Shown in pieces: positions 3,348 through 20,735 of a DNA stretch of 64,000 bases. Origin of the DNA: Candidatus Campbellbacteria bacterium RIFOXYC2_FULL_35_25 (lineage in GTDB: Bacteria > Patescibacteriota > Minisyncoccia > Phycocordibacterales > UBA12079); the NCBI GenBank assembly GCA_001774495.1, contig MFAE01000014.1:10573-74572 (forward strand), given 5' to 3'. Within the stretch, counting starts at the first letter, position 1, and every line of letters begins with the position of its first letter. The position numbers and the translations under genes are program-made. Under the pieces are notes generated by a model that worked only from the letters and a program-made list of their open reading frames with translations, had not been told where the DNA came from and made no database searches.

Positions 3348-3419
3348 GGCGTAGTGGCGAAGTGGTAACGCTGTGGTTTGCAAAACCACCATGCGCCGGT
3401 TCGATTCCGGCCTACGCCT
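3348..3419 (+). tRNA. tRNA-Cys (GCA)
   Basis: Acceptor GGCGTAG/CTACGCC, anticodon loop TTGCAAA, T-arm GCCGGTTCGATTCCGGC, discriminator T. Confidence 0.85.
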
Positions 3420-3436
3420 CAGTTGTTCTTTAAATT

Positions 3437-3518
3437 GCCTAGGTGGCGGAATTGGTATACGCGCACGACTTAAAATCGTGTCTCTCACGGGATGCGGGTT
3501 CGACTCCCGCCCTAGGCA
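3437..3518 (+). tRNA. tRNA-Leu (TAA)
   Basis: Acceptor GCCTAGG/CCTAGGC, anticodon loop CTTAAAA, long variable arm, T-arm GCGGGTTCGACTCCCGC. Confidence 0.85.
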
Positions 3519-3900
3519 CATTAGAAATACTAAATATAATTTATTAAAAATTATATTTAGTATTTCTAATTCGTAAGTTGAGGGAGTCGAACAGAACTTT
3601 TTAAAAGCAAATTTCTTTGCTTTTAAAAAGTCCGAGGCTTCGGAGGAAAAAATTTTGATGTCGTTTCACGACCAAAAATTTTTGGAGGAGAAGGACTCCC
3701 GCCCTAGGCACATTAGAAACATTGAATATATTTTTTGTGGGGTATATTCAATGTTTCTAATCCGTAGGTTGCGGGAGTCGAACAGAACTTTTTAAAAGCA
3801 AATTTTTTTGCTTTTAAAAAGTCCGAGGCTTCGGAGGAAAAAGTTTTCTTTATCGCTTTGCGATTGAAAACTTTTGAGGGAGAAGGACTCCCGCCCTAGG
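3519..3900 (+). repeat. Two tandem ~190-nt structured units (3519-3710 and 3711-3900). Each ends with a direct copy of the tRNA-Leu 3' end (GGACTCCCGCCCTAGG, followed by CA in the first unit).
   Basis: Each unit has a ~50-nt perfect palindrome (cattagaaatactaaatataatttattaaaaattatatttagtatttctaat), then tcgtaag, then gagggagtcgaacagaac (the reverse complement of the Leu T-arm), then small hairpins, then the tRNA 3' copy. Confidence 0.7.
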
Positions 3901-3914
3901 AAAATTAGAAATAT

Positions 3915-3987
3915 CCGTTCGTAGCTCAGTTGGTAGAGCAACCGGCTCTTAACCGGTAGGTCGAAGGTTCGAACCCTTCCGAGCGGA
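3915..3987 (+). tRNA. tRNA-Lys (CTT)
   Basis: Acceptor CCGTTCG/CGAGCGG with one G-U pair, anticodon loop CTCTTAA, T-arm GAAGGTTCGAACCCTTC. Confidence 0.85.
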
Positions 3988-4181
3988 CAAGTGAGCCCTT
4001 TTTGGGCGAGCGCGGAAGTTCGGAGAAAAGCAAACAATTTTGCTTTTCGTAAGGGTTCGAACGACGGAACATGTCGAGCAGAGCGAGACAGTGAGTCGCG
4101 TCCAGTAGTACTTAAATTTTTACGAGCGAAGCGAAGTAAAAAGTTTAGTAACTATGGGACGAACCCTTCCGAGCGGACAAG
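3988..4181 (+). repeat. ~190-nt tRNA-linked element ending with a direct copy of the tRNA-Lys 3' end (GGGACGAACCCTTCCGAGCGGACAAG at 4156-4181)
   Basis: Contains ttcgtaagGGTTCGAACgacggaacatg (reverse complement of the Lys T-arm) and a core related to the Trp- and Ala-linked elements. Confidence 0.65.
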
Positions 4182-4566
4182 CGAGTCTTTATTAGATGAG
4201 CATAAAAAAAGTACAAAAACATTTATAAATTAAAAAATAATAAGTATGTCACAAGATCAATTGATAAAACTAGCATGCCAGGATTGTAAAAGGATTAATT
4301 ACTGGAGCAGGAAAAACAAAAAACTTGTCACCAAAAAGATAGAACTTAAAAAGTTTTGTAAGTGGTGTAAGAAGCAGACTAATCACAAAGAAGTTAAGAA
4401 ATAAACTTAAATTTAGCGCAGGGCTTTGTCGGTTTCAGAAAAATTTGTTTCACCGTATTTGTAATACGTTTCAAAAAATTTTTCCTTACCTCCTCGCCCT
4501 GCATCTAAATTAAAATTTATTTAACGATTTTGTAATTTGGTGATTGAAATTTGTTATTTTAAACAC

Positions 4567-4638
4567 TGGGTCTATAGTTTCAATGGTAAAACATCGGTTT
4601 CCAAAACCGCAGTTCGAGGTTCGAGTCCTCGTGGACCC
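4567..4638 (+). tRNA. tRNA-Trp (CCA)
   Basis: Acceptor GGGTCTA/TGGACCC, anticodon loop TTCCAAA, T-arm CGAGGTTCGAGTCCTCG, discriminator G. Confidence 0.8.
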
Positions 4639-4682
4639 GCAAAATAAAAGCCCCCTAAGGGGGCTTTTATTTTGCGGGTCCA
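4630..4682 (+). terminator. Perfect 25-bp inverted repeat with a 3-nt loop that incorporates the tRNA-Trp 3' acceptor strand; probable intrinsic terminator
   Basis: gtggacccgcaaaataaaagccccc taa gggggcttttattttgcgggtccac. Confidence 0.6.
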
Positions 4683-4692
4683 CAGCAAAGTG

Positions 4693-4870
4693 CCTGCGCA
4701 CTTTGCGTGAGGACTCGAACGGCGGAGACATGTTTTGCAAAGCAAAACAGTCGAGCCGCGTCCAGCGATACTTTGTAAATTTTGAGGTACGAAAAAATTT
4801 ACTTAGTAATCGCGGGACGAGTCCTCGTGAAAGTGCCTGCGCACTTTGCGTGAGGGCTCGAACGGCGGAG
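4693..4870 (+). repeat. tRNA-Trp-linked element. It ends with a direct copy of the T-loop/T-stem (GGGACGAGTCCTCGTG, 4814-4829) and is followed by a second partial copy of its 5' part (4830-4870).
   Basis: aaagtgcctgcgcacttt hairpin, then gcgtgaGGACTCGAACggcggagacatgttttgcaaagcaaaacagtcgagccgcgtccag; the hairpin plus gagggctcgaacggcggag is repeated at 4830-4870. Confidence 0.65.
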
Positions 4871-4940
4871 CAGTTTTGTGAATATAAAAAAGAGGTGTGC
4901 CCATCACGAGCACACCTCCTTGTTCTTAAACCCAGAGCCA

Positions 4941-12028: not shown

Positions 12029-12448
12029 ATGATGAAGAGAGTGTGGAGTATTTGTTTGCTTATTGGGTTGATGTTGTGGTGTTCTACATCCACGGCTTCA
12101 ACCCTGACCCCCGCAGTTTCAGGTCTTTCATTTCACCAGGGTGAAACAGGAGACTTTGAATGGGAAATTTTAAAAAAAGGAGGGAAGGAACACAAGAGCG
12201 AATCAGTTCGCTTTGAGGACAAAAAAAATGAACGGGAGGGGTCTTTTTGGATGACGGGGGGGCATTATGGCGTCGACGATTTTAAAAAAGAAAAAATTCG
12301 TTTTGATAAAAAAGGAAAAGGTCATCACTACGGACGGGGAAAGAATCCCCCTCGTTGTGAAGTCCCTGCACCCTCGAGTATTCTTTTGCTCACCGCCGGC
12401 TTGGTTGGTCTAGCCAGTTTTGGGGCAATCTTAAAAAAGAAGGCGTAA
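12029..12448 (+). CDS. Small secreted protein with a PEP-CTERM-like C-terminal sorting signal (VPAPSS variant), in a GC-rich patch
   Basis: N-terminal signal peptide; C-terminus VPAPSSILLLTAGLVGLASFGAILKKKA. Confidence 0.5.
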   Translation: MMKRVWSICLLIGLMLWCSTSTASTLTPAVSGLSFHQGETGDFEWEILKKGGKEHKSESVRFEDKKNEREGSFWMTGGHYGVDDFKKEKIRFDKKGKGHHYGRGKNPPRCEVPAPSSILLLTAGLVGLASFGAILKKKA

Positions 12449-12633
12449 TTTTTTATGCACGCCTTCGCGCAATAACCTTGTCGTCTCTTTGTGAGATGAC
12501 GAGGTTATTTTTTTATTTGAAATCTATTGACAGACAGGCAATAAGAGTGTAAGTTTATAGAGAAATTTTGCAGTTCTTCGAAGTTTAGAGGGGGGCGTTT
12601 TGCCTAAAATTAAGAACACAAGGAGAGAACAGA

Positions 12634-13307
12634 TGCAACAAACGAAGAGGGTAAGTATGGCCGATTTTCTTGCCGGGATGGTTGGTAACGACGAATCGTT
12701 CATTTTTGGGGTACCCCGTGAGACGATGGCAAGGGAAAGCCCTAAAGATCGTCTTCTGCGAAAAGCAGTGACCGACGGAGAGGCTGCCAAACCGATTGAC
12801 CTCCTTTCTGTCCATGCGGAAACCGTTTCGGCCCTTGCCGCGGCCGACTATTTCCAGGAGCTCTTGGATCTGTCACTCGCGACGAGTGAAGATCTTCGAA
12901 ACAAACTCGAGGTGATGACTCATATCAAGAATGTTCAGGAGAAAAGGGCGAACTCTTTATTCAAAAGGCTGAAGGGGCTCTCTGAGGAAGAGCCTCTCAA
13001 GCAGGCGGTAGTCACGCGGATGAAGAGCCGGATAGCATCTCTGGAGGAGATCACAAACGCCCTTGCCGAGGAAAACGAGCTTCTTATGGAAGCTCTCGAC
13101 ACAATCTCTGCACTCATTGCCTCTCCTCCCAAGTGTTCCCCTCCGGCGAAGAAGGATCGGGTACCTTTAATCAAGCGGATTAAGGAAATCTCGGATGCCT
13201 TTGGTAGTTCCTTCATTCCGTTGGATCAGGCTCCTAAGCCAGGCTGGGTGGAACCGGAAAAAGATTGGCCTCGGTTGCCCATCGACAAACCGAAGTCCGA
13301 GTGTTAG
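12634..13307 (+). CDS. Hypothetical protein, GC-rich with atypical codon usage
   Basis: SD aaggagag 6 nt before the ATG at 12634; GC-rich stem-loop terminator at 13340-13385. Confidence 0.45.
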
Positions 13308-13513: not shown

Positions 13514-13587
13514 GGGCCAGTAGCTCAGTTGGCTAGAGCGCCTCATTTGCACTGAGGAGGTCGGGGGTTCGATTCCTCTCTGGTCCA
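13514..13587 (+). tRNA. tRNA-Ala (TGC)
   Basis: Acceptor GGGCCAG/CTGGTCC with the G3:U70 identity pair, anticodon loop TTTGCAC, T-loop TTCGATT. Confidence 0.85.
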
Positions 13588-13593
13588 CACAAC

Positions 13594-13632
13594 CAAAATA
13601 AAACACCATTTTTTTAGATGGTGTTTTATTTT
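13594..13632 (+). terminator. Palindromic rho-independent terminator after tRNA-Ala
   Basis: aaaataaaacaccat ttttttag atggtgttttatttt. Confidence 0.7.
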
Positions 13633-13639
13633 GTGTTGC

Positions 13640-13850
13640 TGTGCCAGAAGAAAGCAAACTGCTTTGCTTTCGTGAGGAATCGAAAGGCGGAATCATGTTT
13701 TGCGAAGCAAAACAGACGAGCCGGGGTCGCGAGCACTTAATAGATTTCGAGCCGAAGACGAAGAAATATATTTAGTGACTCGTGACCGATTCCTCTCTGG
13801 TCCATATTTTTACTTAGAACTGGGGACCGATTCCTCTCTGGTCCACCAAA
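13640..13850 (+). repeat. tRNA-Ala-linked element with two direct copies of the tRNA-Ala 3' end (GACCGATTCCTCTCTGGTCCA at 13784-13804 and 13825-13845)
   Basis: ctttcgtgaGGAATCGAAaggcggaatcatgttttgcgaagcaaaacagacgagccggggtcgcgagcactt; the core is homologous to the Trp-linked element. Confidence 0.65.
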
Positions 13851-14399
13851 ATCTAGACCCAAAAGCGACAGCTTTCGGGCCTAGATTTTGGTGGAATATT
13901 CTAGACTTTGCGCGAAATTATTTTGAGAACGAATGAAGCTTACGCTCCGATTTCTTCTAAACTTTAAACCGCCTGCTACGCCCCACTAAAGCGGAAGTTT
14001 CGGCGAAACGACTTGTCGCCTCCGTAAACTCTGGCGACAACCAACACCAAAAAAATTCTTTTCCTTTTCTCTCTAGGGTCTGTTCAAGATTTCACCGCAA
14101 ACATATATTATTTACTACTCTAAAGAGTAGAGTTTGCTTGTCGGCTAAAACTTCATAATTTTGGCTACAAATTTTTAAAATTTCGTCAGTATATCTTGAT
14201 ATACTTCTTCAATTTTTAAAATTTTCGCACAAAATTCTGAAGTTTTATCTCGACATGAAATCTTGAACAAACTCTTGAAATTTGGGGGGGGCGAAAAAAG
14301 AAAGGAAAAAACGCAAAGAAATTTTTTTGGGTTGGTTTCGAACTTATAGGCAGTATCTTAATACTTTAAGATGCTGCCCGCTTCTAGCCATTTTTTGTT

Positions 14400-14427
14400 C
14401 CAACGGCTCAACGACTTGAGCCGTTGG
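14400..14427. repeat. Copy 1 of the palindromic motif CAACGGCTCAACGA(C/G)TTGAGCCGTTG; further copies at 18387-18410 and 20755-20780
   Basis: Three near-identical 11-12 bp stem palindromes in intergenic positions: copy 1 ahead of the first island gene, copy 2 inside the island, copy 3 after the last. Confidence 0.7.
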
Positions 14428-14496
14428 TTTATCGACATACCGTTATATTATAATATAACATTGTGGTATACTATAACAAGCGATATACTGTTGATA

Positions 14497-14703
14497 ATGA
14501 ATGGTGAATCTGAAAAACTTGGTAAAAATTTAAATAAAATTAGAACAAGTAAAAAAATATCGCAAGGTGATATTGCTCGCTCGTTAGGAGTTAGCCGTGG
14601 TTTTATTAGTAACATAGAAAATGGTAAAACTAACCCTACACTTGCAACGATTAGTAAAATAGCAAAAGCTGTTGGTGTTTCTACTGACGAATTATTAAAA
14701 TAA
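14497..14703 (+). CDS. XRE-family HTH regulator, resembling a restriction-modification controller (C) protein
   Basis: ~68 aa; LGKNLNKIRTSKKISQGDIARSLGVSRGFISNIENGKTNPTLATISKIAKAVGVS. Confidence 0.65.
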   Translation: MNGESEKLGKNLNKIRTSKKISQGDIARSLGVSRGFISNIENGKTNPTLATISKIAKAVGVSTDELLK

Positions 14704-14705
14704 TT

Positions 14706-15776
14706 ATGAGTAAAGAAAAAACAAGTTCAAATAGTAACCTACATAAAGCTAATAGGGCAAAAAAAGACGAGTTTTATACTCAGCTTATTGATATTGAAAA
14801 GGAGTTAAAACACTACAAAGAACAATTTCGTGACAAGGTAGTATATTGTAACTGCGATGACCCCTTTGAAAGTAATTTTTTCAAATATTTTGCCTCAAAC
14901 TTTAATGTTCTGGGCTTAAAAAAACTCATTGCCACCAGTTACAAACCATCCCCAATTGCTAATACTCAATTAGGATTATTTGGTGATGACAAAAAACTCT
15001 CAAAATCAAAAGGTCGCCCAAAAACAACAGCTAATAAATTTATCATCAACGAAGCTAGTGATTTTGATGGTGATGGTGCATTTGACCTTCATGATATAGC
15101 AGAACAACTAAAGGCTAATAAAAATAATGAGTGGGCTCCTCTTAAAGGTGATGGGGATTTTAAAAGCCCAGAAAGTATAGAACTTTTAAAACAAGCAGAT
15201 ATTGTCGTAACTAATCCACCTTTTTCATTATTTAGGGAATATGTTGCTCAATTAGTTGAGTATGATAAAAAATTTTTAATATTAGGTCAGCAGGGAGCGG
15301 TGATCTATAAAGAATTTATTCCTCTAATCAAAGAAAATAAAGTTTGGCTCGGACATGATAATGGTGGAACAAAATGGTTTCAAGTTCCTATGGATTATGA
15401 CATCCCAACAGAATCAAGAAAAAAAAATGTTGACGGTGTAAAATATTTCAGCATGGGAAGTGTTAATTGGTATACAAATCTCGAAGTTGCTCGTCGCCAC
15501 AATGATCTTGTATTATATAAAAAATATAATCCTAAGGAATATTTTAAATATGATAATTATGATGGAATTAACGTAAATAGATATATCGATATCCCAATGG
15601 ATTATGAAGGAGTAATGGGTGTACCAATTACTTTTCTTAACTACCATAACCCTGATCAGTTTGAGATTATAGGATTAGATAGGTACACGGGAAAGAATGG
15701 AGATAAAGATTTTACTATTAACGGGAAAATGTTGTTTCGTCGTATATTAATTAAAAATAAAAGACCACAAAAATAA
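14706..15776 (+). CDS. N6-adenine (amino-class) DNA methyltransferase
   Basis: DEFYTQ (motif X-like), VYCNCDDPFESNFF (motif I-like), IVVTNPPFS (motif IV, NPPF). Confidence 0.65.
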   Translation: MSKEKTSSNSNLHKANRAKKDEFYTQLIDIEKELKHYKEQFRDKVVYCNCDDPFESNFFKYFASNFNVLGLKKLIATSYKPSPIANTQLGLFGDDKKLSKSKGRPKTTANKFIINEASDFDGDGAFDLHDIAEQLKANKNNEWAPLKGDGDFKSPESIELLKQADIVVTNPPFSLFREYVAQLVEYDKKFLILGQQGAVIYKEFIPLIKENKVWLGHDNGGTKWFQVPMDYDIPTESRKKNVDGVKYFSMGSVNWYTNLEVARRHNDLVLYKKYNPKEYFKYDNYDGINVNRYIDIPMDYEGVMGVPITFLNYHNPDQFEIIGLDRYTGKNGDKDFTINGKMLFRRILIKNKRPQK

Positions 15777-15780
15777 TGAT

Positions 15781-16884
15781 ATGATAATAAATTTACATAA
15801 GATTAAAATCTCTGAGATTGTAAAGGATTATAAGGACAGCGATGAAGAAGGGGTGTCTGCTTTTGGTGGTAAATTAGATATTCGTCCTAAGTATCAAAGA
15901 GAGTTTGTATATAGTGGTAAACAAAGAGATGAAGTGATCAGAACTGTCAAAAATGGTTTTCCTTTAAATGTTATGTATTGGGTGAAAAAAGAAGACAAAA
16001 ATTTTGAAGTACTTGATGGACAACAAAGGACAATTAGTATCGCCCAATTTGTAAATGGAGATTTTTCAATTGAATTTAACGGAAGAATCGCAATGTTTCA
16101 TAATCTAACTAAAGAAGAACAAGAGCAGATTATGAATTATGATCTTATGATTTATCACTGTGAAGGAACCGATAAGGAAAAGCTCGACTGGTTTAAGATT
16201 ATTAATATTGCTGGTGAGAAATTGTTTCCTCAAGAGCTACGAAATGCTGTGTATACTGGCCCATGGCTTTCAGATGCAAAGCTGAAGTTTAGTAAATCAA
16301 ATTGTGCGTCTTATTTGTTAGCAAATGACGGTGGTCAATTAATAACAGGTTCTCCTATAAGACAAGAGTATCTAGAAACTGCATTATCATGGATAAACAA
16401 TGATGAAATAGAACAATATATGGCACAACATCAACATGACAAAGATGCAGATGAGTTGTGGCAGTATTTTCAAAATGTAATCCATTGGGTACGGAAAACT
16501 TTTCCTCATTATAGAAAAGAGATGTCAGGCGTAAATTGGGGCGAACTCTATAACGCATTTAAAAACAAAAAACTTAATCCAGAAAAATTAGAGAAAGAAA
16601 TTAAAAGATTGATGCAAGATGAAGACGTCACAAAAAAATCTGGGATCTATTCATATATATTAACTCTCAAGGAGCGATACCTTTCTATACGGGCATTCAC
16701 ACCAAATATGAAACGTGAAGCATATGAAAGACAAAATGGTGTTTGCCCTGAATGTAATAAAGATTTTTCACTTTCAGAAATGGAAACGGATCATATTGAT
16801 CCGTGGCATGAAGGTGGAAGAACAATAGCAGAAAATTGCCAGATGTTATGCAAAGAATGTAATAGACGAAAATCTGGAAAATAA
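15781..16884 (+). CDS. DUF262 (ParB-like, DGQQR) plus C-terminal HNH nuclease fusion; GmrSD-like restriction-type nuclease
   Basis: LDGQQRT motif; C-terminus CPECN..HIDPWHEGGRT..NCQMLCKECNRRK. Confidence 0.65.
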   Translation: MIINLHKIKISEIVKDYKDSDEEGVSAFGGKLDIRPKYQREFVYSGKQRDEVIRTVKNGFPLNVMYWVKKEDKNFEVLDGQQRTISIAQFVNGDFSIEFNGRIAMFHNLTKEEQEQIMNYDLMIYHCEGTDKEKLDWFKIINIAGEKLFPQELRNAVYTGPWLSDAKLKFSKSNCASYLLANDGGQLITGSPIRQEYLETALSWINNDEIEQYMAQHQHDKDADELWQYFQNVIHWVRKTFPHYRKEMSGVNWGELYNAFKNKKLNPEKLEKEIKRLMQDEDVTKKSGIYSYILTLKERYLSIRAFTPNMKREAYERQNGVCPECNKDFSLSEMETDHIDPWHEGGRTIAENCQMLCKECNRRKSGK

Positions 16885-16888
16885 AATT

Positions 16889-17998
16889 ATGAAAAAAATC
16901 GAAGTAAAAATCACAGAAAAAGATAAGGGTACAAAAGACCTGTCCTTGCTTAACCTACGCGATGAAGTTGTTAATTTTCTATATAAAGATACCGTTGCTA
17001 ATTCAACAAAAACAGACATGCAATTCTTCGTTTTGCTTTTCTTTGCGTCTATTCAAGTTGAACAAAAGACCTTTTTGGAAAAAATTTTAGAAGACGGTGT
17101 GCCGAAATTCAAAAAGCTAAATGCAGTATTTTCAAACAGAAAAGGATATTTACATGCAGGAGAGTATAAAAAGATGGTTGACGAACATGGGCTTACTGAG
17201 TTGTTTAAAAACGATATTTTCTTTGTAATTATTGAAGCCGTTTTAAATATTGACGAAATAAAAAGTCGTTTCTCTGAGCTTTTTGAAAAACATAAAAAAT
17301 TAGGAGATTCCATAATTTCAATCGGAGAAAAATATTCAAGAGATTTAGAAGAAAGTTTCAAAGATTTCCAGACCTCAAGAATTCAGGACGATAGATACGA
17401 TGAGCACGGAAATTATCATGATTTAAGCAAAAGCGTATATAGGACTGTTAGGATGCGAAATTCTAGGAACCTTGATTTAAATCTTCAGCGATATACCTCA
17501 ATAAAGAAGATTACCAGTGAATCGCCAGTTGATTTAACCTTTCTTCAACATATTGATCCACAAATCATTTTTGATTTGTGGGATAAGTATCAAGTTGCTG
17601 AATACATGAAGTCAATGTGGAGTACAGCAAATAATAGCCCGATAATCGCTAATACAGTTGGGGGTATTTTTGGTGGATTGGTTGTGCTGTATGCTCAATG
17701 GAAACTTATCGACGGAAGAAAAAATAGAACAGAAAAAAAGAAAGCGAAGCAAAAATTCGAAAAATCAAAAACAGAGAACGGACATATTCTTGATGATCTT
17801 ACACTTAGGCTTGTTGATTCTGTGTTAAAGGCAAACGAAAGATTAGAAAAAGAGGTTGAGGTAAATAGAACAAAAGTTCGAGAACTTTCGAGTGAAAATC
17901 TCCTGATTCAAGATAAAGATAAAATAAAAAAGCTTGAAGAGCGAATTGCTCAACTTGAAAACTTATCTGTACAAGCAAAAGTTATTGACTATAAGTAG
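16889..17998 (+). CDS. Hypothetical protein with a C-terminal coiled coil
   Basis: 369-aa ORF tightly packed after the nuclease gene. Confidence 0.4.
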   Translation: MKKIEVKITEKDKGTKDLSLLNLRDEVVNFLYKDTVANSTKTDMQFFVLLFFASIQVEQKTFLEKILEDGVPKFKKLNAVFSNRKGYLHAGEYKKMVDEHGLTELFKNDIFFVIIEAVLNIDEIKSRFSELFEKHKKLGDSIISIGEKYSRDLEESFKDFQTSRIQDDRYDEHGNYHDLSKSVYRTVRMRNSRNLDLNLQRYTSIKKITSESPVDLTFLQHIDPQIIFDLWDKYQVAEYMKSMWSTANNSPIIANTVGGIFGGLVVLYAQWKLIDGRKNRTEKKKAKQKFEKSKTENGHILDDLTLRLVDSVLKANERLEKEVEVNRTKVRELSSENLLIQDKDKIKKLEERIAQLENLSVQAKVIDYK

Positions 17999-18081
17999 AT
18001 GATAGGGAGCCACGCTTGCGCGCTTATGAGCAGGTGAGGCAATCACAATATGATTTGTTTATGGTGTGTTAAAATAAACTT

Positions 18082-18372
18082 ATGAATTTTATACTTTTAA
18101 TAATAGTTGCAATAGCAGGAATAATTATCGGAAGTTATTTTGGTGTGAAAAAAGATGGTTTGATTTTTGGGCAAACGAAGAAAAAGAAAGAAAACAAGGA
18201 AAGAATATTGAAATTTTTGGAAACTAATGAAAAAGTGACAAATAATGATATTGAGAAATTATTAGGAGTATCTGATGCAACTGCAACAAGGTATCTAAAT
18301 GAATTAGAAAAAGAGCAAAAAATCAAACAAATCGGCACGGTCGGTCATGCCGTATATTATCGCTTAATGTAG
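18082..18372 (+). CDS. Small membrane-anchored protein with a C-terminal winged-HTH tail
   Basis: N-terminal TM helix; C-terminus ATATRYLNELEKEQKIKQIGTVGHAVYYRL. Confidence 0.45.
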   Translation: MNFILLIIVAIAGIIIGSYFGVKKDGLIFGQTKKKKENKERILKFLETNEKVTNNDIEKLLGVSDATATRYLNELEKEQKIKQIGTVGHAVYYRLM

Positions 18373-18408
18373 CCACGAAGTGGCTGAACGGCTCAACGAG
18401 TTGAGCCG

Positions 18409-20061
18409 TTGAAAAGATTTATGAAAGACAAAGAATATTATTCAAATTTTGAAAACCAGCGTGATGAACACACTCAGAATATTTTAGGTTCGGAAAGCAA
18501 AAATAAAATTATTCTTGCTGGACCAGGAACTGGAAAAAGTTATTTATTTCAACAAATATGTAAAAACAATATTGAAAATGATCTTAACAACAATTTGACT
18601 CTATCTTTTATCAACGAATTAGTTAATGATTTATCAAAAGATTTACACGGACTTTCTGATGTAAAAACATTACACAGTTTTGCCTTAAAAAACATCTCTA
18701 AAAATACTAATTTTTTTATGAATTTAGGTGATGTAATTCAAGAAGATTATAAAATTATAAAAAATAAAGAAGTTAGTTTTAAAGATATATTTTATAACCT
18801 TGAGGAAGAAAAAGAAGACGAATTAAATTTTTATTCAGAAAGGAGAAAATTTTATAATTTCTTTGGTCCAAACTGTTCTATATATACATTAATAAAAATA
18901 TTTGAAAATAATGAAGAAAAAATTCCAAAATATTCTCAAATTTTAATAGATGAATTTCAAGACTTTAATAAATTAGAAAGCCGCCTGATAGACTTATTGG
19001 CAGAAAAAAACTCAATGGTCATTGCTGGGGACGATGACCAATCATTATATTCTTTCAAAAATGCAAATCCTCAAGAAATAAGAGACAAACACAAATCAGA
19101 AGAATATACATCTTTTGAGTTACCTTTTTGTTCAAGATGTCCTGAAGTTATAATAAATTCTTTTCATAATATAGTCGACAAAGCTAAGGCAGAAGGTTTT
19201 TTGAAAGATAGAATTTCAAAAGAATACAAGTATTTTCCTTCAGTAGAAAAAGACCTACTATCATCGCAAAACCCTAAACTCATAATAAATAAAGGGGTAT
19301 ATCAAAACCAAATTGCTTTTAACATTGAAAAAGAAATAAAAAGCATATCTGATTCAGGAAAAAAAGATTTTTCTGTTTTAGTAATATGTTCTTTAAAATC
19401 ACAAATAAAAAGCTTAGAGAAAGCTTTGCGTAAAAAAGGCTTTAATAATATTGAATCACCTCAAGAAAAGAAAGGAGGTGATTTAATTGACGGGCTAAAA
19501 TTGTTACAAAAAGATAAAGAATGTAATTTAGGGTGGAGAATTGTCTCAAAAATAATTTTAGAAAATAATAATAAAGATATTAAAGATATTATTAAAAAAA
19601 GCCACTCTAATTTAAATAAAAAATTTTATGAATTATTAGATAAAAATGATGTTAAATATATAAAACAAGTACTCGCAATATTTAAAAAAGTTAATGAAAA
19701 TAAATCATTAAAAAAAGAAGAGTATCAAAAAATTTTAGATTGTTTCGGTTATAATCAAGAAAATATTGTGTTAGAAAAATTAAAAGAAGATTTTCAAGAT
19801 AACAATAATCAAAAAACAAATTACAAGAATATACCTATAAAAATAACAACCATTCTCGGCTCAAAAGGGCTGACCAATGATTATGTCTTTCTTGTCAATT
19901 TTGATGATGGATATCTTTTTGGAAAAGAGAAAAAAATAACTGATGAAAATATTTGTAAATTTTTAGTTGCGTTAACAAGAGCAAAGAAAAAAATCTATCT
20001 TTATGCAAACAACAACAAGTTACCTACTTTTGTAAATTGGATTGATAAAAATAATTATTAA
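18409..20061 (+). CDS. Superfamily 1 (UvrD/PcrA-like) helicase, short form
   Basis: Walker A AGPGTGKS, motif II ILIDEFQDF, C-terminal ILGSKGL...VALTRAKKKIYLY. Confidence 0.6.
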   Translation: MKRFMKDKEYYSNFENQRDEHTQNILGSESKNKIILAGPGTGKSYLFQQICKNNIENDLNNNLTLSFINELVNDLSKDLHGLSDVKTLHSFALKNISKNTNFFMNLGDVIQEDYKIIKNKEVSFKDIFYNLEEEKEDELNFYSERRKFYNFFGPNCSIYTLIKIFENNEEKIPKYSQILIDEFQDFNKLESRLIDLLAEKNSMVIAGDDDQSLYSFKNANPQEIRDKHKSEEYTSFELPFCSRCPEVIINSFHNIVDKAKAEGFLKDRISKEYKYFPSVEKDLLSSQNPKLIINKGVYQNQIAFNIEKEIKSISDSGKKDFSVLVICSLKSQIKSLEKALRKKGFNNIESPQEKKGGDLIDGLKLLQKDKECNLGWRIVSKIILENNNKDIKDIIKKSHSNLNKKFYELLDKNDVKYIKQVLAIFKKVNENKSLKKEEYQKILDCFGYNQENIVLEKLKEDFQDNNNQKTNYKNIPIKITTILGSKGLTNDYVFLVNFDDGYLFGKEKKITDENICKFLVALTRAKKKIYLYANNNKLPTFVNWIDKNNY

Positions 20062-20063
20062 AA

Positions 20064-20735
20064 ATGCCACCAGAAGAAAATCAAAAAAATACAGTTGAAG
20101 AAATTCCTGTTTCGGCTCCGCCGAAACAGGAAGTCGTTGAAAATGTTCCCGTTGTTGAAGAAACCCCTGCTCCAATTGAAACTCTTGTGGAAGAACAAAC
20201 TGAAAATATTGAAAATATTGAAAATGTTGAAACTGAAGTCGTTGAGCCAATAATAATTGAGTCTGTAACAGAAACGCCGATTATTGAAACGACTGAACCG
20301 ATAGAACAAATAGAAAACGAAGAAACTGGATTGCTTCACTTTGTTCGCAAAGACGAAGCTGTTGAAGAAATTCCACAAGTTGAAGAAGTGAAACAGTCTC
20401 AATCTGTTCAACAAGAACAACCTCAACCGCAGTCAGAACCTCAACCACAACAAACTCAAACTGTTGAAAAAATTATTTATCAAACTCCGCCTAATTTGAT
20501 TCAAAATCTCTTAACCAAAGCGAGAGCAAAAATTCAAGAAAGGAAAAATAAGAAGTTGAATAAAATAATGTCACTTTTTGAATCAAATTCAAATATTTCT
20601 AACTCGGATGTTCAAAAATTGCTACGAACTACTAAAAGAAGTGCAACAAGATATTTAAATATTCTTGAAAAAGAGCAAAAGATAATTCAAGTTGGAAATG
20701 CTGGCAGAGGTGTAAAATACATCAAAAAACCTTAA
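20064..20735 (+). CDS. Acidic low-complexity protein (ENIENIENVETEVVEP, QPQPQSEPQPQQ) carrying the same winged-HTH tail as the 18082 gene
   Basis: C-terminus SATRYLNILEKEQKIIQVGNAGRGVKYI. Confidence 0.45.
   Translation: MPPEENQKNTVEEIPVSAPPKQEVVENVPVVEETPAPIETLVEEQTENIENIENVETEVVEPIIIESVTETPIIETTEPIEQIENEETGLLHFVRKDEAVEEIPQVEEVKQSQSVQQEQPQPQSEPQPQQTQTVEKIIYQTPPNLIQNLLTKARAKIQERKNKKLNKIMSLFESNSNISNSDVQKLLRTTKRSATRYLNILEKEQKIIQVGNAGRGVKYIKKP

Follow-up and report, generated by a model that had tools for sequence, protein, structure and literature searches.

A stretch of 64,000 nucleotides (nt) of contig MFAE01000014.1 from Candidatus Campbellbacteria bacterium RIFOXYC2_FULL_35_25, hereafter the window, carries an intact tRNA-Ala(UGC) gene on the + strand at 13514–13588, as called by ARAGORN (13514–13587 with the Rfam tRNA model), and behind it a small folded element that ends in a duplicate of the tRNA 3' end. 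The repeated sequence is the 18-mer CGATTCCTCTCTGGTCCA, which equals nt 56–73 of tRNA-Ala and occurs within the gene itself (copy a, 13570–13587), at the end of the element (copy b, 13787–13804) and once more at 13828–13845 (copy c), where it is followed by CCA up to 13848. These copies, and all elements and element parts of the window described below, lie on the + strand. An earlier note on this DNA had reported copies of the tRNA-Ala 3' end downstream of the gene, and they are real: the 18-mer occurs three times in the window against a chance expectation of 0.05 matches, and three or more copies arose in none of 100 shuffles. No other match exists in the 64 kb with up to three mismatches allowed. 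The downstream copies had been given as 21-mers (13784–13804 and 13825–13845); 18 nt match the tRNA, but the first three bases, GAC, do not. GAC precedes both downstream 18-mers and is the element's own 3' end, common to both copies.

The element is headed by a terminator-like palindromic hairpin (A-tract, stem, loop, stem, T-tract; 13590–13638) that is supplied with it; this hairpin is nearly identical in Campbellbacteria CP011215 (L172; L-numbers are labels of collected loci), and homologous hairpins head other copies. Next comes a lead, or anti-acceptor, segment (13639–13649), whose GCCAGA pairs with TCTGGT of the 3' copy in the predicted fold, followed by hairpin P1 (13650–13671, GAAAGCAAA-CTGC-TTTGCTTTC), which splits the antisense guide. 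The guide sequence behind P1, GAGGAATCGAA (13674–13684), is the reverse complement of tRNA-Ala nt 54–64, that is, of the T-loop and the 3' strand of the T-stem. A conserved three-way-junction strand and hairpin P2 (13685–13722, AG-GCGGAAUCAUG-hairpin-CAGACGAGCC) lead to stem P3 with a bulged A and the hypervariable distal hairpin P4 (13723–13786), and the GAC end of this part adjoins copy b. In the predicted fold (−67.5 kcal/mol, z = −6.5), copy b pairs with the antisense segment and closes the three-way junction. The palindromic terminator, a core sequence from 13668 and a hairpin at ~13848–13892 were all located as the earlier note had claimed. The purine-rich sequence GAGCG(A/G)AGCGAAG recurs in P4 terminal loops, e.g., at 13748–13766 and 4112–4128 of the window, and, in copies without a terminator, also in the linker between tRNA and element (L175, L139, L099 and L129); it could be a protein-binding or tertiary-contact site.

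The locus had been described as one element with two copies of the tRNA 3' end. Both copies exist, but the second ends an older element rather than the same one: the segment 13805–13827 (...TTAGAACTGGGGAC) resembles the last ~23 nt of the element and hence represents a 5'-truncated older copy, of which an orthologous remnant is present in L172. The tRNA-Ala locus is one full copy plus one 5'-truncated older copy of the element. Copy c is probably the displaced original 3' end of tRNA-Ala, and the hairpin at ~13848–13892 (aaaatctagaccc...gggcctagatttt), which has a diverged counterpart in L172, is probably the original tRNA-Ala terminator. The two downstream copies enclose only the 216-nt element and the 23-nt remnant. 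The proposal that the repeats are attL/attR sites of a downstream island failed, as the 18-mer is found neither at ~20.8 kb nor elsewhere in the window; the feature belongs to a family of small structured elements and is not an island scar. N73-CA, rather than CCA or an unrelated base, follows the five tRNA genes of the window (3348–4640 and 13514–13588), as it does at many loci of the candidate phyla radiation (CPR); among the Ala copies and tRNAs of the window, CCA follows only the third Ala copy (13828–13848).

Copies in the window and across Patescibacteria

Elements of the same family stand behind tRNA-Lys(CUU) (3989–4179; antisense AAGGGTTCGAA, sense copy at 4160–4179) and behind tRNA-Trp (4641–4829), the latter with a 3' copy truncated at CGAGTCCTCGTG and followed by a decayed second copy of which only the 5' part is left (P1, antisense and GGCGGAG; 4830–4890). 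The earlier note had recognized the core of the Trp element behind tRNA-Ala, with the T-arm complement switched, and correctly so: GAGGAATCGAA is the exact reverse complement of tRNA-Ala TTCGATTCCTC, and the Trp element carries GAGGACTCGAA as its antisense opposite tRNA-Trp TTCGAGTCCTC. When aligned, the Lys, Trp and Ala elements show 76% column identity. The Lys and Trp elements fold like the Ala element (z = −5.0 and −9.2, respectively), with compensatory changes in 24 of the 53 predicted pairs already among these three sequences.

Behind tRNA-Leu(UAA), two tandem copies represent a second structural class (Leu-type), which has another core and the same design of hairpin, contiguous antisense, multi-hairpin core and sense copy. 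Copy a (3520–3712) comprises a hairpin, the contiguous antisense GAGGGAGTCGAAC, a three-hairpin core and a sense copy (3694–3712), while copy b (3713–3901) has the antisense GCGGGAGTCGAAC and a sense copy at ~3886–3901. The Leu-type antisense is uninterrupted and 13 nt long, and the three hairpins between it and the sense copy include a conserved UCCGAGGCUUCGGAGG. A model of this class (R2) matches other genomes and tRNAs too (L219, L102, L149 and L105); in L102 (4489–4876), a Leu-type-like copy and then a copy of the type described above are stacked behind one tRNA. A third, shorter class has a sense copy that includes T54–T55 and is preceded by a small hairpin, GAAGCTGTAAGCTTCGA (L229 1538–1680; L098 ~2217–2437; L131 ~1868–2035). 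In total, four of the five window tRNAs carry an element, with tRNA-Cys empty, and antisense and 3' copy fit the local tRNA at every window copy.

Loci of other genomes were collected by a degenerate core pattern, which fixes 19 core bases, over one genome per GTDB species. More than 118 stretches matched, and the locus results rest on the 80 that are listed, 59 of which are labelled Patescibacteria; these include Yonath-, Kaiser-, Vogel-, Nomura-, Woese-, Uhr-, Campbell- and Taylorbacteria, Paceibacterota and many Saccharibacteria. A covariance model (R1) built from three window copies identified 82 copies in 60 of the loci listed, 58 of them labelled Patescibacteria. Of the 20 pattern loci outside the CPR, 19 hold no R1 copy and agree with what is expected from chance matches, and the sole non-CPR match of R1 is a weak one in a metagenome-assembled genome (MAG) of Endomicrobiales. 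A viral origin was considered by scanning IMG/VR with the core pattern, which gave 92 stretches; R1 matched none of the 80 listed, and these are chance matches. A tRNA gene on the same strand lies upstream of 65 of the 82 copies, mostly 4–55 nt away, and the species are Ala, Arg, Asn, Cys, Glu, Gly, Ile, Leu, Lys, Met, Phe, Pro, Ser, Thr and Tyr. Most of the remaining copies stand behind tmRNA genes (L157, L163 and L176), tRNAs with group I introns (L120 and L125), or tRNAs and arrays cut by contig ends, and four look like orphans (L100, L118, L155 and L158). The introns (RF00028; L120 5708–5986, L125 6188–6428) interrupt the element-bearing tRNAs, indicating that both kinds of small structured element can share one tRNA gene. 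A model-free count found a repeat of nt 56–72 downstream of 52 of the 147 tRNA/tmRNA genes in CPR loci, at a distance of 60–400 nt in all but four cases.

The units are ~150–220 nt long, protein-less and strongly folded. Rfam 15 at the gathering threshold detected only tRNAs in the window, and at E ≤ 10 only hairpin noise was added; literature searches, which included sequence strings, returned no description of the family, and the meeting report PMC10714607 and the intron paper PMC13011429 deal with different subjects. It is thus apparently undescribed so far, and we rate it as a real feature that is new in kind.

The structure is under selection across the CPR copies. Standard pairs fill 92.1% of the cells in an alignment of the 82 sequences, compared with 36–41% when the partners are slid by 1–3 columns. 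Both-sided changes occur in 52 of the 53 pairs, and none of 500 shuffles reached the observed values; the alignment was fitted to the model, which somewhat inflates the pairing, but the covariation lies far beyond such inflation. Helix P1 is 97.8% paired and covaries in all nine pairs, and the folds of the window copies have z values of −5 to −9. With two junction columns of conserved A·G/A·C left out, G·U pairs outnumber A·C pairs by 117 to 36, indicating that it is the tRNA-sense strand that folds, either as RNA or as single-stranded DNA (ssDNA). Conservation among unpaired bases is highest on both sides of the junction, CGT-[guide]-AA(A/C)G-(G/A)CGGAG-N-CATG ... CAG-N-CGAG, although the collecting pattern accounts for part of it.

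The two tRNA-matching segments differ in how well they fit. The antisense segment complements T-loop and T-stem nt 54–64 of its own tRNA, often along with the acceptor 3' strand, and the guide is retargeted to the local tRNA in more than 50 copies of other genomes. At nt 59–64, a part that the collecting pattern does not fix, the complement mismatches the adjacent tRNA at 18 of 312 positions (52 copies, about 14 tRNA species), and the 3' copy does so at 47 of 312 positions; at nt 65–73, the 3' copy has 100 mismatches in 468. The tRNA-identical block always begins at C56, right after T54–T55, and ends at nt 73–75; in place of TT, the element has GAC, GGGA or CCC before C56. The last element base is C or A, and the upstream tRNA is complete. 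The anti-acceptor is the Watson–Crick complement of the tRNA 3' strand and not a copy of the tRNA 5' strand, which removes a simple tRNA-mimic reading. Mimicry through a copied 5' acceptor strand, with aminoacylation in mind, was accordingly rejected: at acceptor positions that are G·U or mismatched in the tRNA, the element mostly carries the Watson–Crick complement, and G3·U70 is kept in only two of three Ala lineages that count as independent, with the window copy and its L172 orthologue taken as one. A comparison by eye only with H/ACA-, C/D- and k-turn-like motifs, with integron attC R-boxes and with a TaqI-like T^CGA cut at 55|56 gave no consistent fit.

Turnover, recombination and horizontal spread

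The family shows turnover, recombination and horizontal spread. Arrays and fragments are found in the window (two Leu copies, one Trp copy plus a 5' part, one Ala copy plus a 3' remnant) and elsewhere: L172 has two copies and two remnants behind tRNA-Ala; in L157, L115, L145 and L219 a full copy is followed by one with the 5' part only; and only the terminator and a 12-nt anti-acceptor are left behind tRNA-Trp of L220. Occupancy was compared at orthologous tRNAs of relatives with 48–67% IF2 identity. The tRNA-Leu(UAA) site is empty in L220 and holds 1.5 copies in L219 and two in the window, the tRNA-Cys site is empty in the window and filled in L222, L224 and L226, and occupancy varies also in a conserved Arg-Gly-yraN-Pro-Gly cluster. 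Behind tRNA-Lys of L220 (4130–4170, − strand) lies a 41-nt fragment that is a whole displaced T-arm plus acceptor 3' strand from a different tRNA-Lys allele; unlike the elements, it resembles a classical attR-like scar, and the orthologous L219 site is empty.

Sequence sharing between copies crosses both tRNA species and genomes. In the Saccharibacteria MAG CAYUDP, a core of ~120–150 nt is common to the copies behind tRNA-Gly(CCC), Arg(CCU) and Arg(GCG); it is identical between Gly(CCC) and Arg(GCG), whereas two P2-loop nucleotides set the Arg(CCU) copy apart. All three 3' copies fit their own tRNA at 19 of 19 positions, while the Arg(GCG) copy (L135) retains the Gly-type guide GGAG, i.e., that of the previous tRNA. 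In Vogelbacteria JBJHBV, the Gly(GCC) and Pro(UGG) copies are identical from the anti-T-loop (GAATCGAA) through the sense T-loop (CGATTC) and differ in P1, the anti-acceptor and the T-stem part of the guide. Between genomes, the P2–P3 block of a tRNA-Gly copy (L171) shows only three differences from that of a Woesebacterium tRNA-Lys copy (L139), both having an unusual G57 deletion. The window Ala element is ~90% identical to a Nomurabacteria tRNA-Lys element, with the guide differing by the one base that is needed (GAGG to TAGG). Outside P4, the window Ala element and its terminator are ~99% identical to those of CP011215, compared with 67% for the adjacent DUF2914 gene, and the remnant and downstream hairpin are more diverged than the element. 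Such near-identical cores in distant genomes and at different tRNAs indicate horizontal spread.

Proposed guided insertion and alternative explanations

The search for a protein partner covered the window and ~60 loci. Among the 50 open reading frames (ORFs) of the window, Pfam detected no integrase, transposase, reverse transcriptase or RNA-guided nuclease. When 847 ORFs from ~60 loci were clustered all against all and Pfam was run on the top clusters, no neighbour family proved enriched beyond synteny; the recurrence of YraN, CCA-adding enzyme, ExoIII, RbfA and LepA is due solely to the conserved gene order around particular tRNAs.

We give an even chance to the reading that the family is a non-autonomous, base-pairing-guided insertion element for tRNA/tmRNA 3' ends in Patescibacteria. 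Each unit consists, in order, of an often present terminator hairpin of its own, the antisense guide, a conserved multi-helix junction and a flush duplicate of tRNA nt 56 to ~74; the guide, split by P1 in the tRNA-Ala class, complements the acceptor 3' strand and nt 54–64, and the tRNA stays intact. The element would travel as a single-stranded nucleic acid of tRNA-sense polarity, a form favoured over a double-stranded circle by the size of 200 nt. Its guide would pair with the sense strand of the tRNA gene and its 3' sense segment could pair with the complementary strand, strands being joined at two places, the T55|C56 boundary set by the junction and a point near nt 74, whereby the 3' duplicate would be taken from, or matched to, the target. 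The chemistry could be provided by a host or trans-encoded enzyme, with a HUH/Y1-type or tyrosine recombinase acting on folded ssDNA as candidates, by nick- or target-primed copying of an RNA or DNA template, or by self-catalysis. A new tRNA target would be reached through few guide substitutions only, and copies would swap modules after arrival by recombining within the T-loop-derived sequences that they have in common. Strand joining or nick-primed copying from the boundary fits the junction-flush T55|C56 boundary together with the target-matched 3' copies in the identical-core sets, as well as the 5'-truncated remnants that are flush with a sense copy and the identity tracts that share a right end at the sense T-loop.

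Several observations weigh against this reading. No enzyme or excised form was found in the window or the ~60 loci, and transposition of the elements is itself something that we infer. A clean pair of empty and filled sites with shared flanks was not found: contig look-ups by exact protein led back to the contig itself or to contig breaks, and the spacers of the relatives with 48–67% IF2 identity are unalignable. Within any one genome, the majority of copies are old and diverged. The identical-core cases may reflect gene conversion between resident copies rather than new insertions; the tracts end at T-loop-derived sequences, and such conversion could give the same identity tracts. An intervening terminator in about half of the copies, the other half having none between tRNA and element, argues against an RNA intermediate made by read-through. 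Core conservation is partly a matter of ascertainment, since the collecting pattern fixes 19 core bases. Furthermore, the guide fits the tRNA better than the 3' duplicate does, and the retention of structure and guide in old, diverged copies looks like long-term purifying selection, which could mean a host function.

That host function is the core of the main rival, which we hold to be rather unlikely: the elements would be host-beneficial, tRNA-linked non-coding RNAs, made as 3' trailers or read-through products, whose antisense pairs with the T-arm and acceptor 3' strand of their own (pre-)tRNA or tRNA gene and controls folding, 3'-end processing, termination, modification or turnover, with the 3' sense copy as an intramolecular lid. 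Strong structural selection over deep CPR lineages would follow naturally, as would a guide that remains perfect even where the sense copy has decayed. The invariable position on the same strand just 3' of the tRNA, in about half of the copies without an intervening terminator, the locus-specific and apparently long resident left modules (P1 and anti-acceptor) and the presence of an element at four of five window tRNAs point the same way. However, occupancy is patchy at orthologous tRNAs among relatives and some tRNAs are never occupied, tandem and 5'- and 3'-truncated copies are common, and many copies bring a terminator upstream of themselves. The horizontal spread indicated by near-identical cores at different tRNAs in distant genomes and the existence of at least two unrelated cores with the same design also speak against a host RNA, and one RNA per tRNA would be costly in reduced genomes. 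Classical attL/attR scars of tyrosine-integrase islands or prophages, i.e., remnants like cis-mobilizable elements (CIMEs), with tRNA-Ala a hotspot beside the defence island, are very improbable. Direct repeats of a tRNA 3' end next to an intact tRNA are a hallmark of such integration, tmRNA genes are used as well, the arrays look like accretion, tRNA-Ala lies between an indel and a defence cluster of island-like character, and L220 holds a classical-looking displaced tRNA-Lys 3' fragment. Nevertheless, no integrase was found in the window or ~60 loci, no distal repeat bounds an island, and the repeats enclose just 150–220 nt; decay of island DNA cannot yield a covarying structure with tRNA-matched antisense, and the identity always begins at C56 in about 14 tRNA species.

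Two further explanations start from the element as an RNA. An orphan guide RNA in the manner of omega-RNA or bridge RNA, its scaffold binding a nuclease or recombinase encoded elsewhere, is improbable in our view. The guide would be the 3' 18–19 nt (nt 56–74) with the universal G53–T54–T55 as adjacent motif, or else the internal antisense, and the kept scaffold with a variable 18–19-nt 3' segment starting exactly after the T-loop GTT agrees with this, as does, loosely, the presence of sense and antisense to one site, as in systems that read both DNA strands. Against it, no TnpB, IscB, IS110-type or Cas-like gene occurs in the window or near the 82 copies, and the segment that would be the 3' guide is bound up in a helix and has decayed in many copies. 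The best Rfam omega-RNA match, IS605-orfB-I on a Leu-type copy, reaches 17.5 bits against a gathering threshold of 94.2 (E = 0.59), and the 18–19-nt duplication is unlike IS110 (2-nt core) or IS200/IS605 (no duplication). A self-inserting, ribozyme-like (intron-like) RNA is slightly less probable still. The antisense would serve it as internal guide sequence by aligning T54–T55|C56 at the junction, where the ...GAC-3' end abuts C56, and transesterification of the reverse-splicing type into tRNA transcripts or DNA would be followed by fixation in DNA. Element and target do meet precisely where the three helices join, without an unpaired nucleotide in between and amid the most conserved unpaired bases, and the guide pairs with ~9 nt 3' and 2 nt 5' of this boundary, the order found in group I guide sequences (P1/P10). 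CPR genomes are also rich in group I introns, tRNAs included (PMC13011429), and genes of the 2H/LigT-type RNA ligase family flank one cargo-bearing copy, which is anecdotal. Yet no Rfam ribozyme or intron model matches, though true introns in the same loci were detected; there is no terminal G and no U·G at the boundary, the tRNA is uninterrupted, the core is small and is not that of the second class, and fixation in DNA needs a reverse transcriptase, none of which is linked.

Among known systems, the elements appear to work most like the guide-using single-strand transposons, i.e., the palindrome-associated transposable elements (PATEs) of IS200/IS605, with an outcome most like that of tRNA-targeting integrative elements, yet they do not show the defining features of either group, nor those of IS110 bridge RNAs, group I introns, miniature inverted-repeat transposable elements (MITEs), casposons or retroelement primer-binding sites. 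IS200/IS605 and PATEs ('peel and paste') are alike in strand specificity, in hairpins and in being protein-less when non-autonomous; the target would likewise be chosen by an internal guide flanking a hairpin (P1) and changed by guide changes, with insertion directly 3' of the recognized sequence. The element guide, however, measures 11–20 nt instead of 4–5, the element ends in a full target copy, and it has one guide-flanked hairpin in place of two similar ends. No Y1 TnpA or TnpB was found in the window or the collected loci, and omega-RNA/IS605-orfB RNA models gave no match at the gathering threshold in the window. Integrative elements of tRNA/tmRNA genes and CIMEs share the 3' site, the regenerated tRNA, the direct repeat of the 3' end and tandem accretions; here, units of 150–220 nt without integrase or cargo have a covarying structure and an internal antisense of the target, one scaffold is retargeted to about 14 tRNA species, and the block always starts at C56. 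The flanking tRNA 3'-end repeats of an integrase island are present, but no integrase was found in the window or the ~60 loci, and the enclosed DNA is not unstructured cargo. IS110/IS1111 bridge (seek) RNAs are similar as structured RNAs of ~150–200 nt with short programmable site-matching segments; the present elements lack a DEDD recombinase ORF, have a single guide region without evident separate donor and target loops, show an 18–19-nt duplication rather than a 2-nt core, and cover the same target bases in sense and antisense.

Casposons, in Aciduliprofundum and Methanosarcina, duplicate their target at the 3' end of a tRNA gene, and a staggered-cut-style duplication of fixed length at this place is what the elements have in common with casposons and Cas1. 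The casposon duplication is 14–15 bp long; the elements differ in having no Cas1 and no terminal inverted repeats (TIRs), in being much smaller and in their internal guide. Compared with MITEs, which have TIRs and a short fixed duplication, the element ends (CACAACC.../...CTCGTGAC) are not inverted repeats, and the inverted repeat of the element is that between target copy and internal guide. Primer-binding sites of long terminal repeat (LTR) retroelements also complement about the last 18–20 nt of a specific tRNA; the complement here is split by P1, lacks a CCA complement, comes without reverse transcriptase or LTRs and adjoins the cognate tRNA gene. Group I introns of Patescibacteria tRNAs sit at position 35/36 (PMC13011429), and these, like the mobile tRNA introns of Thermoproteales (cited in PMC10714607), are small structured spreaders with a tRNA-complementary guide. 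The elements differ in lying outside the mature tRNA and in carrying a tRNA 3'-end duplicate, and have no terminal G; RF00028 gave no match on them at E ≤ 10, while it detected the true introns of L120 and L125.

Returning to guided insertion, a stronger form can be put forward only tentatively: a reprogrammable, nucleic-acid-guided DNA insertion system whose specificity resides in an 11–20-nt guide within a ~200-nt protein-less scaffold, forming a new CPR-wide class. The folded single strand would hold both target strands, its antisense bound to the sense strand and its 3' sense segment to the complement, and insertion at the junction-defined position would be carried out by a host or trans-acting enzyme or by its own catalysis. 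If the elements are guide-bearing insertion elements, they would add a new principle beside group II introns, IS200/IS605, IS110 bridge RNAs and CRISPR-associated transposons, as a minimal package without protein whose target has shifted in evolution among no fewer than 14 tRNA species plus tmRNA. The targeting rules would then be readable from natural variants, and the missing enzyme would be a concrete search target. If they are host RNAs, they would represent an unrecognized layer of tRNA biology in a phylum whose genomes are very reduced and which accounts for much of bacterial diversity. On both views the elements explain a good part of the 'extra' DNA downstream of CPR tRNA genes, as about one third of the sampled tRNA/tmRNA genes carry the repeat, and the elements matter for the annotation of tRNA 3' flanks, terminators and supposed att sites in MAGs.

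Neighbourhood of tRNA-Ala and minor observations

Upstream of tRNA-Ala, a stretch at 12.0–13.5 kb has 44–47% GC against ~30% and contains two ORFs without Pfam matches (12029–12448 and 12600–13307). In CP011215, the orthologous DUF2914 gene and tRNA-Ala have no such stretch between them, indicating an indel next to the tRNA. Directly behind the tRNA-Ala array lies a defence-like cluster (14371–20735), which encodes, in order, a helix-turn-helix protein, an EcoRI-type adenine methylase, a GmrSD-N/HNH nuclease, an uncharacterized 369-aa protein, a winged helix-turn-helix protein, a UvrD-like helicase and an uncharacterized 223-aa protein; neither an integrase nor a bounding repeat was seen at the cluster. 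The GC-rich patch upstream and the restriction/defence cluster downstream thus border tRNA-Ala as the earlier note had stated, but the same architecture occurs at tRNAs without an island. The synteny comparison that it had suggested agrees in that the neighbourhood is plastic, the GC-rich patch being absent in CP011215, but the repeats bound no island.

Regarding long-range repeats that enclose cargo, only L108 qualifies, the L171 case being a second tRNA-Gly gene. In L108 (560–3320), 2.1 kb separate tRNA-Met from an element of the R1 type and a 17-nt repeat that matches the tRNA 3' end perfectly. This DNA encodes a protein of the inositol-monophosphatase family (IMPase) and one of the 2'-5' RNA ligase (2H/LigT) superfamily, and a second 2H gene lies just beyond the element. 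L108 is a single case and may be a cargo-carrying relative or a coincidence. The window contig is present in groundwater assemblies, and the IF2 of the host is short. A separate short repeat that resembles repetitive extragenic palindromic (REP) sequences (GGATTGCTTCGC...GCTCGCAATGACG) occurs in both orientations in intergenic regions of the relatives L219 (8125–8165) and L220 (~3500–3540, 2815–2850 and 2920–2960).

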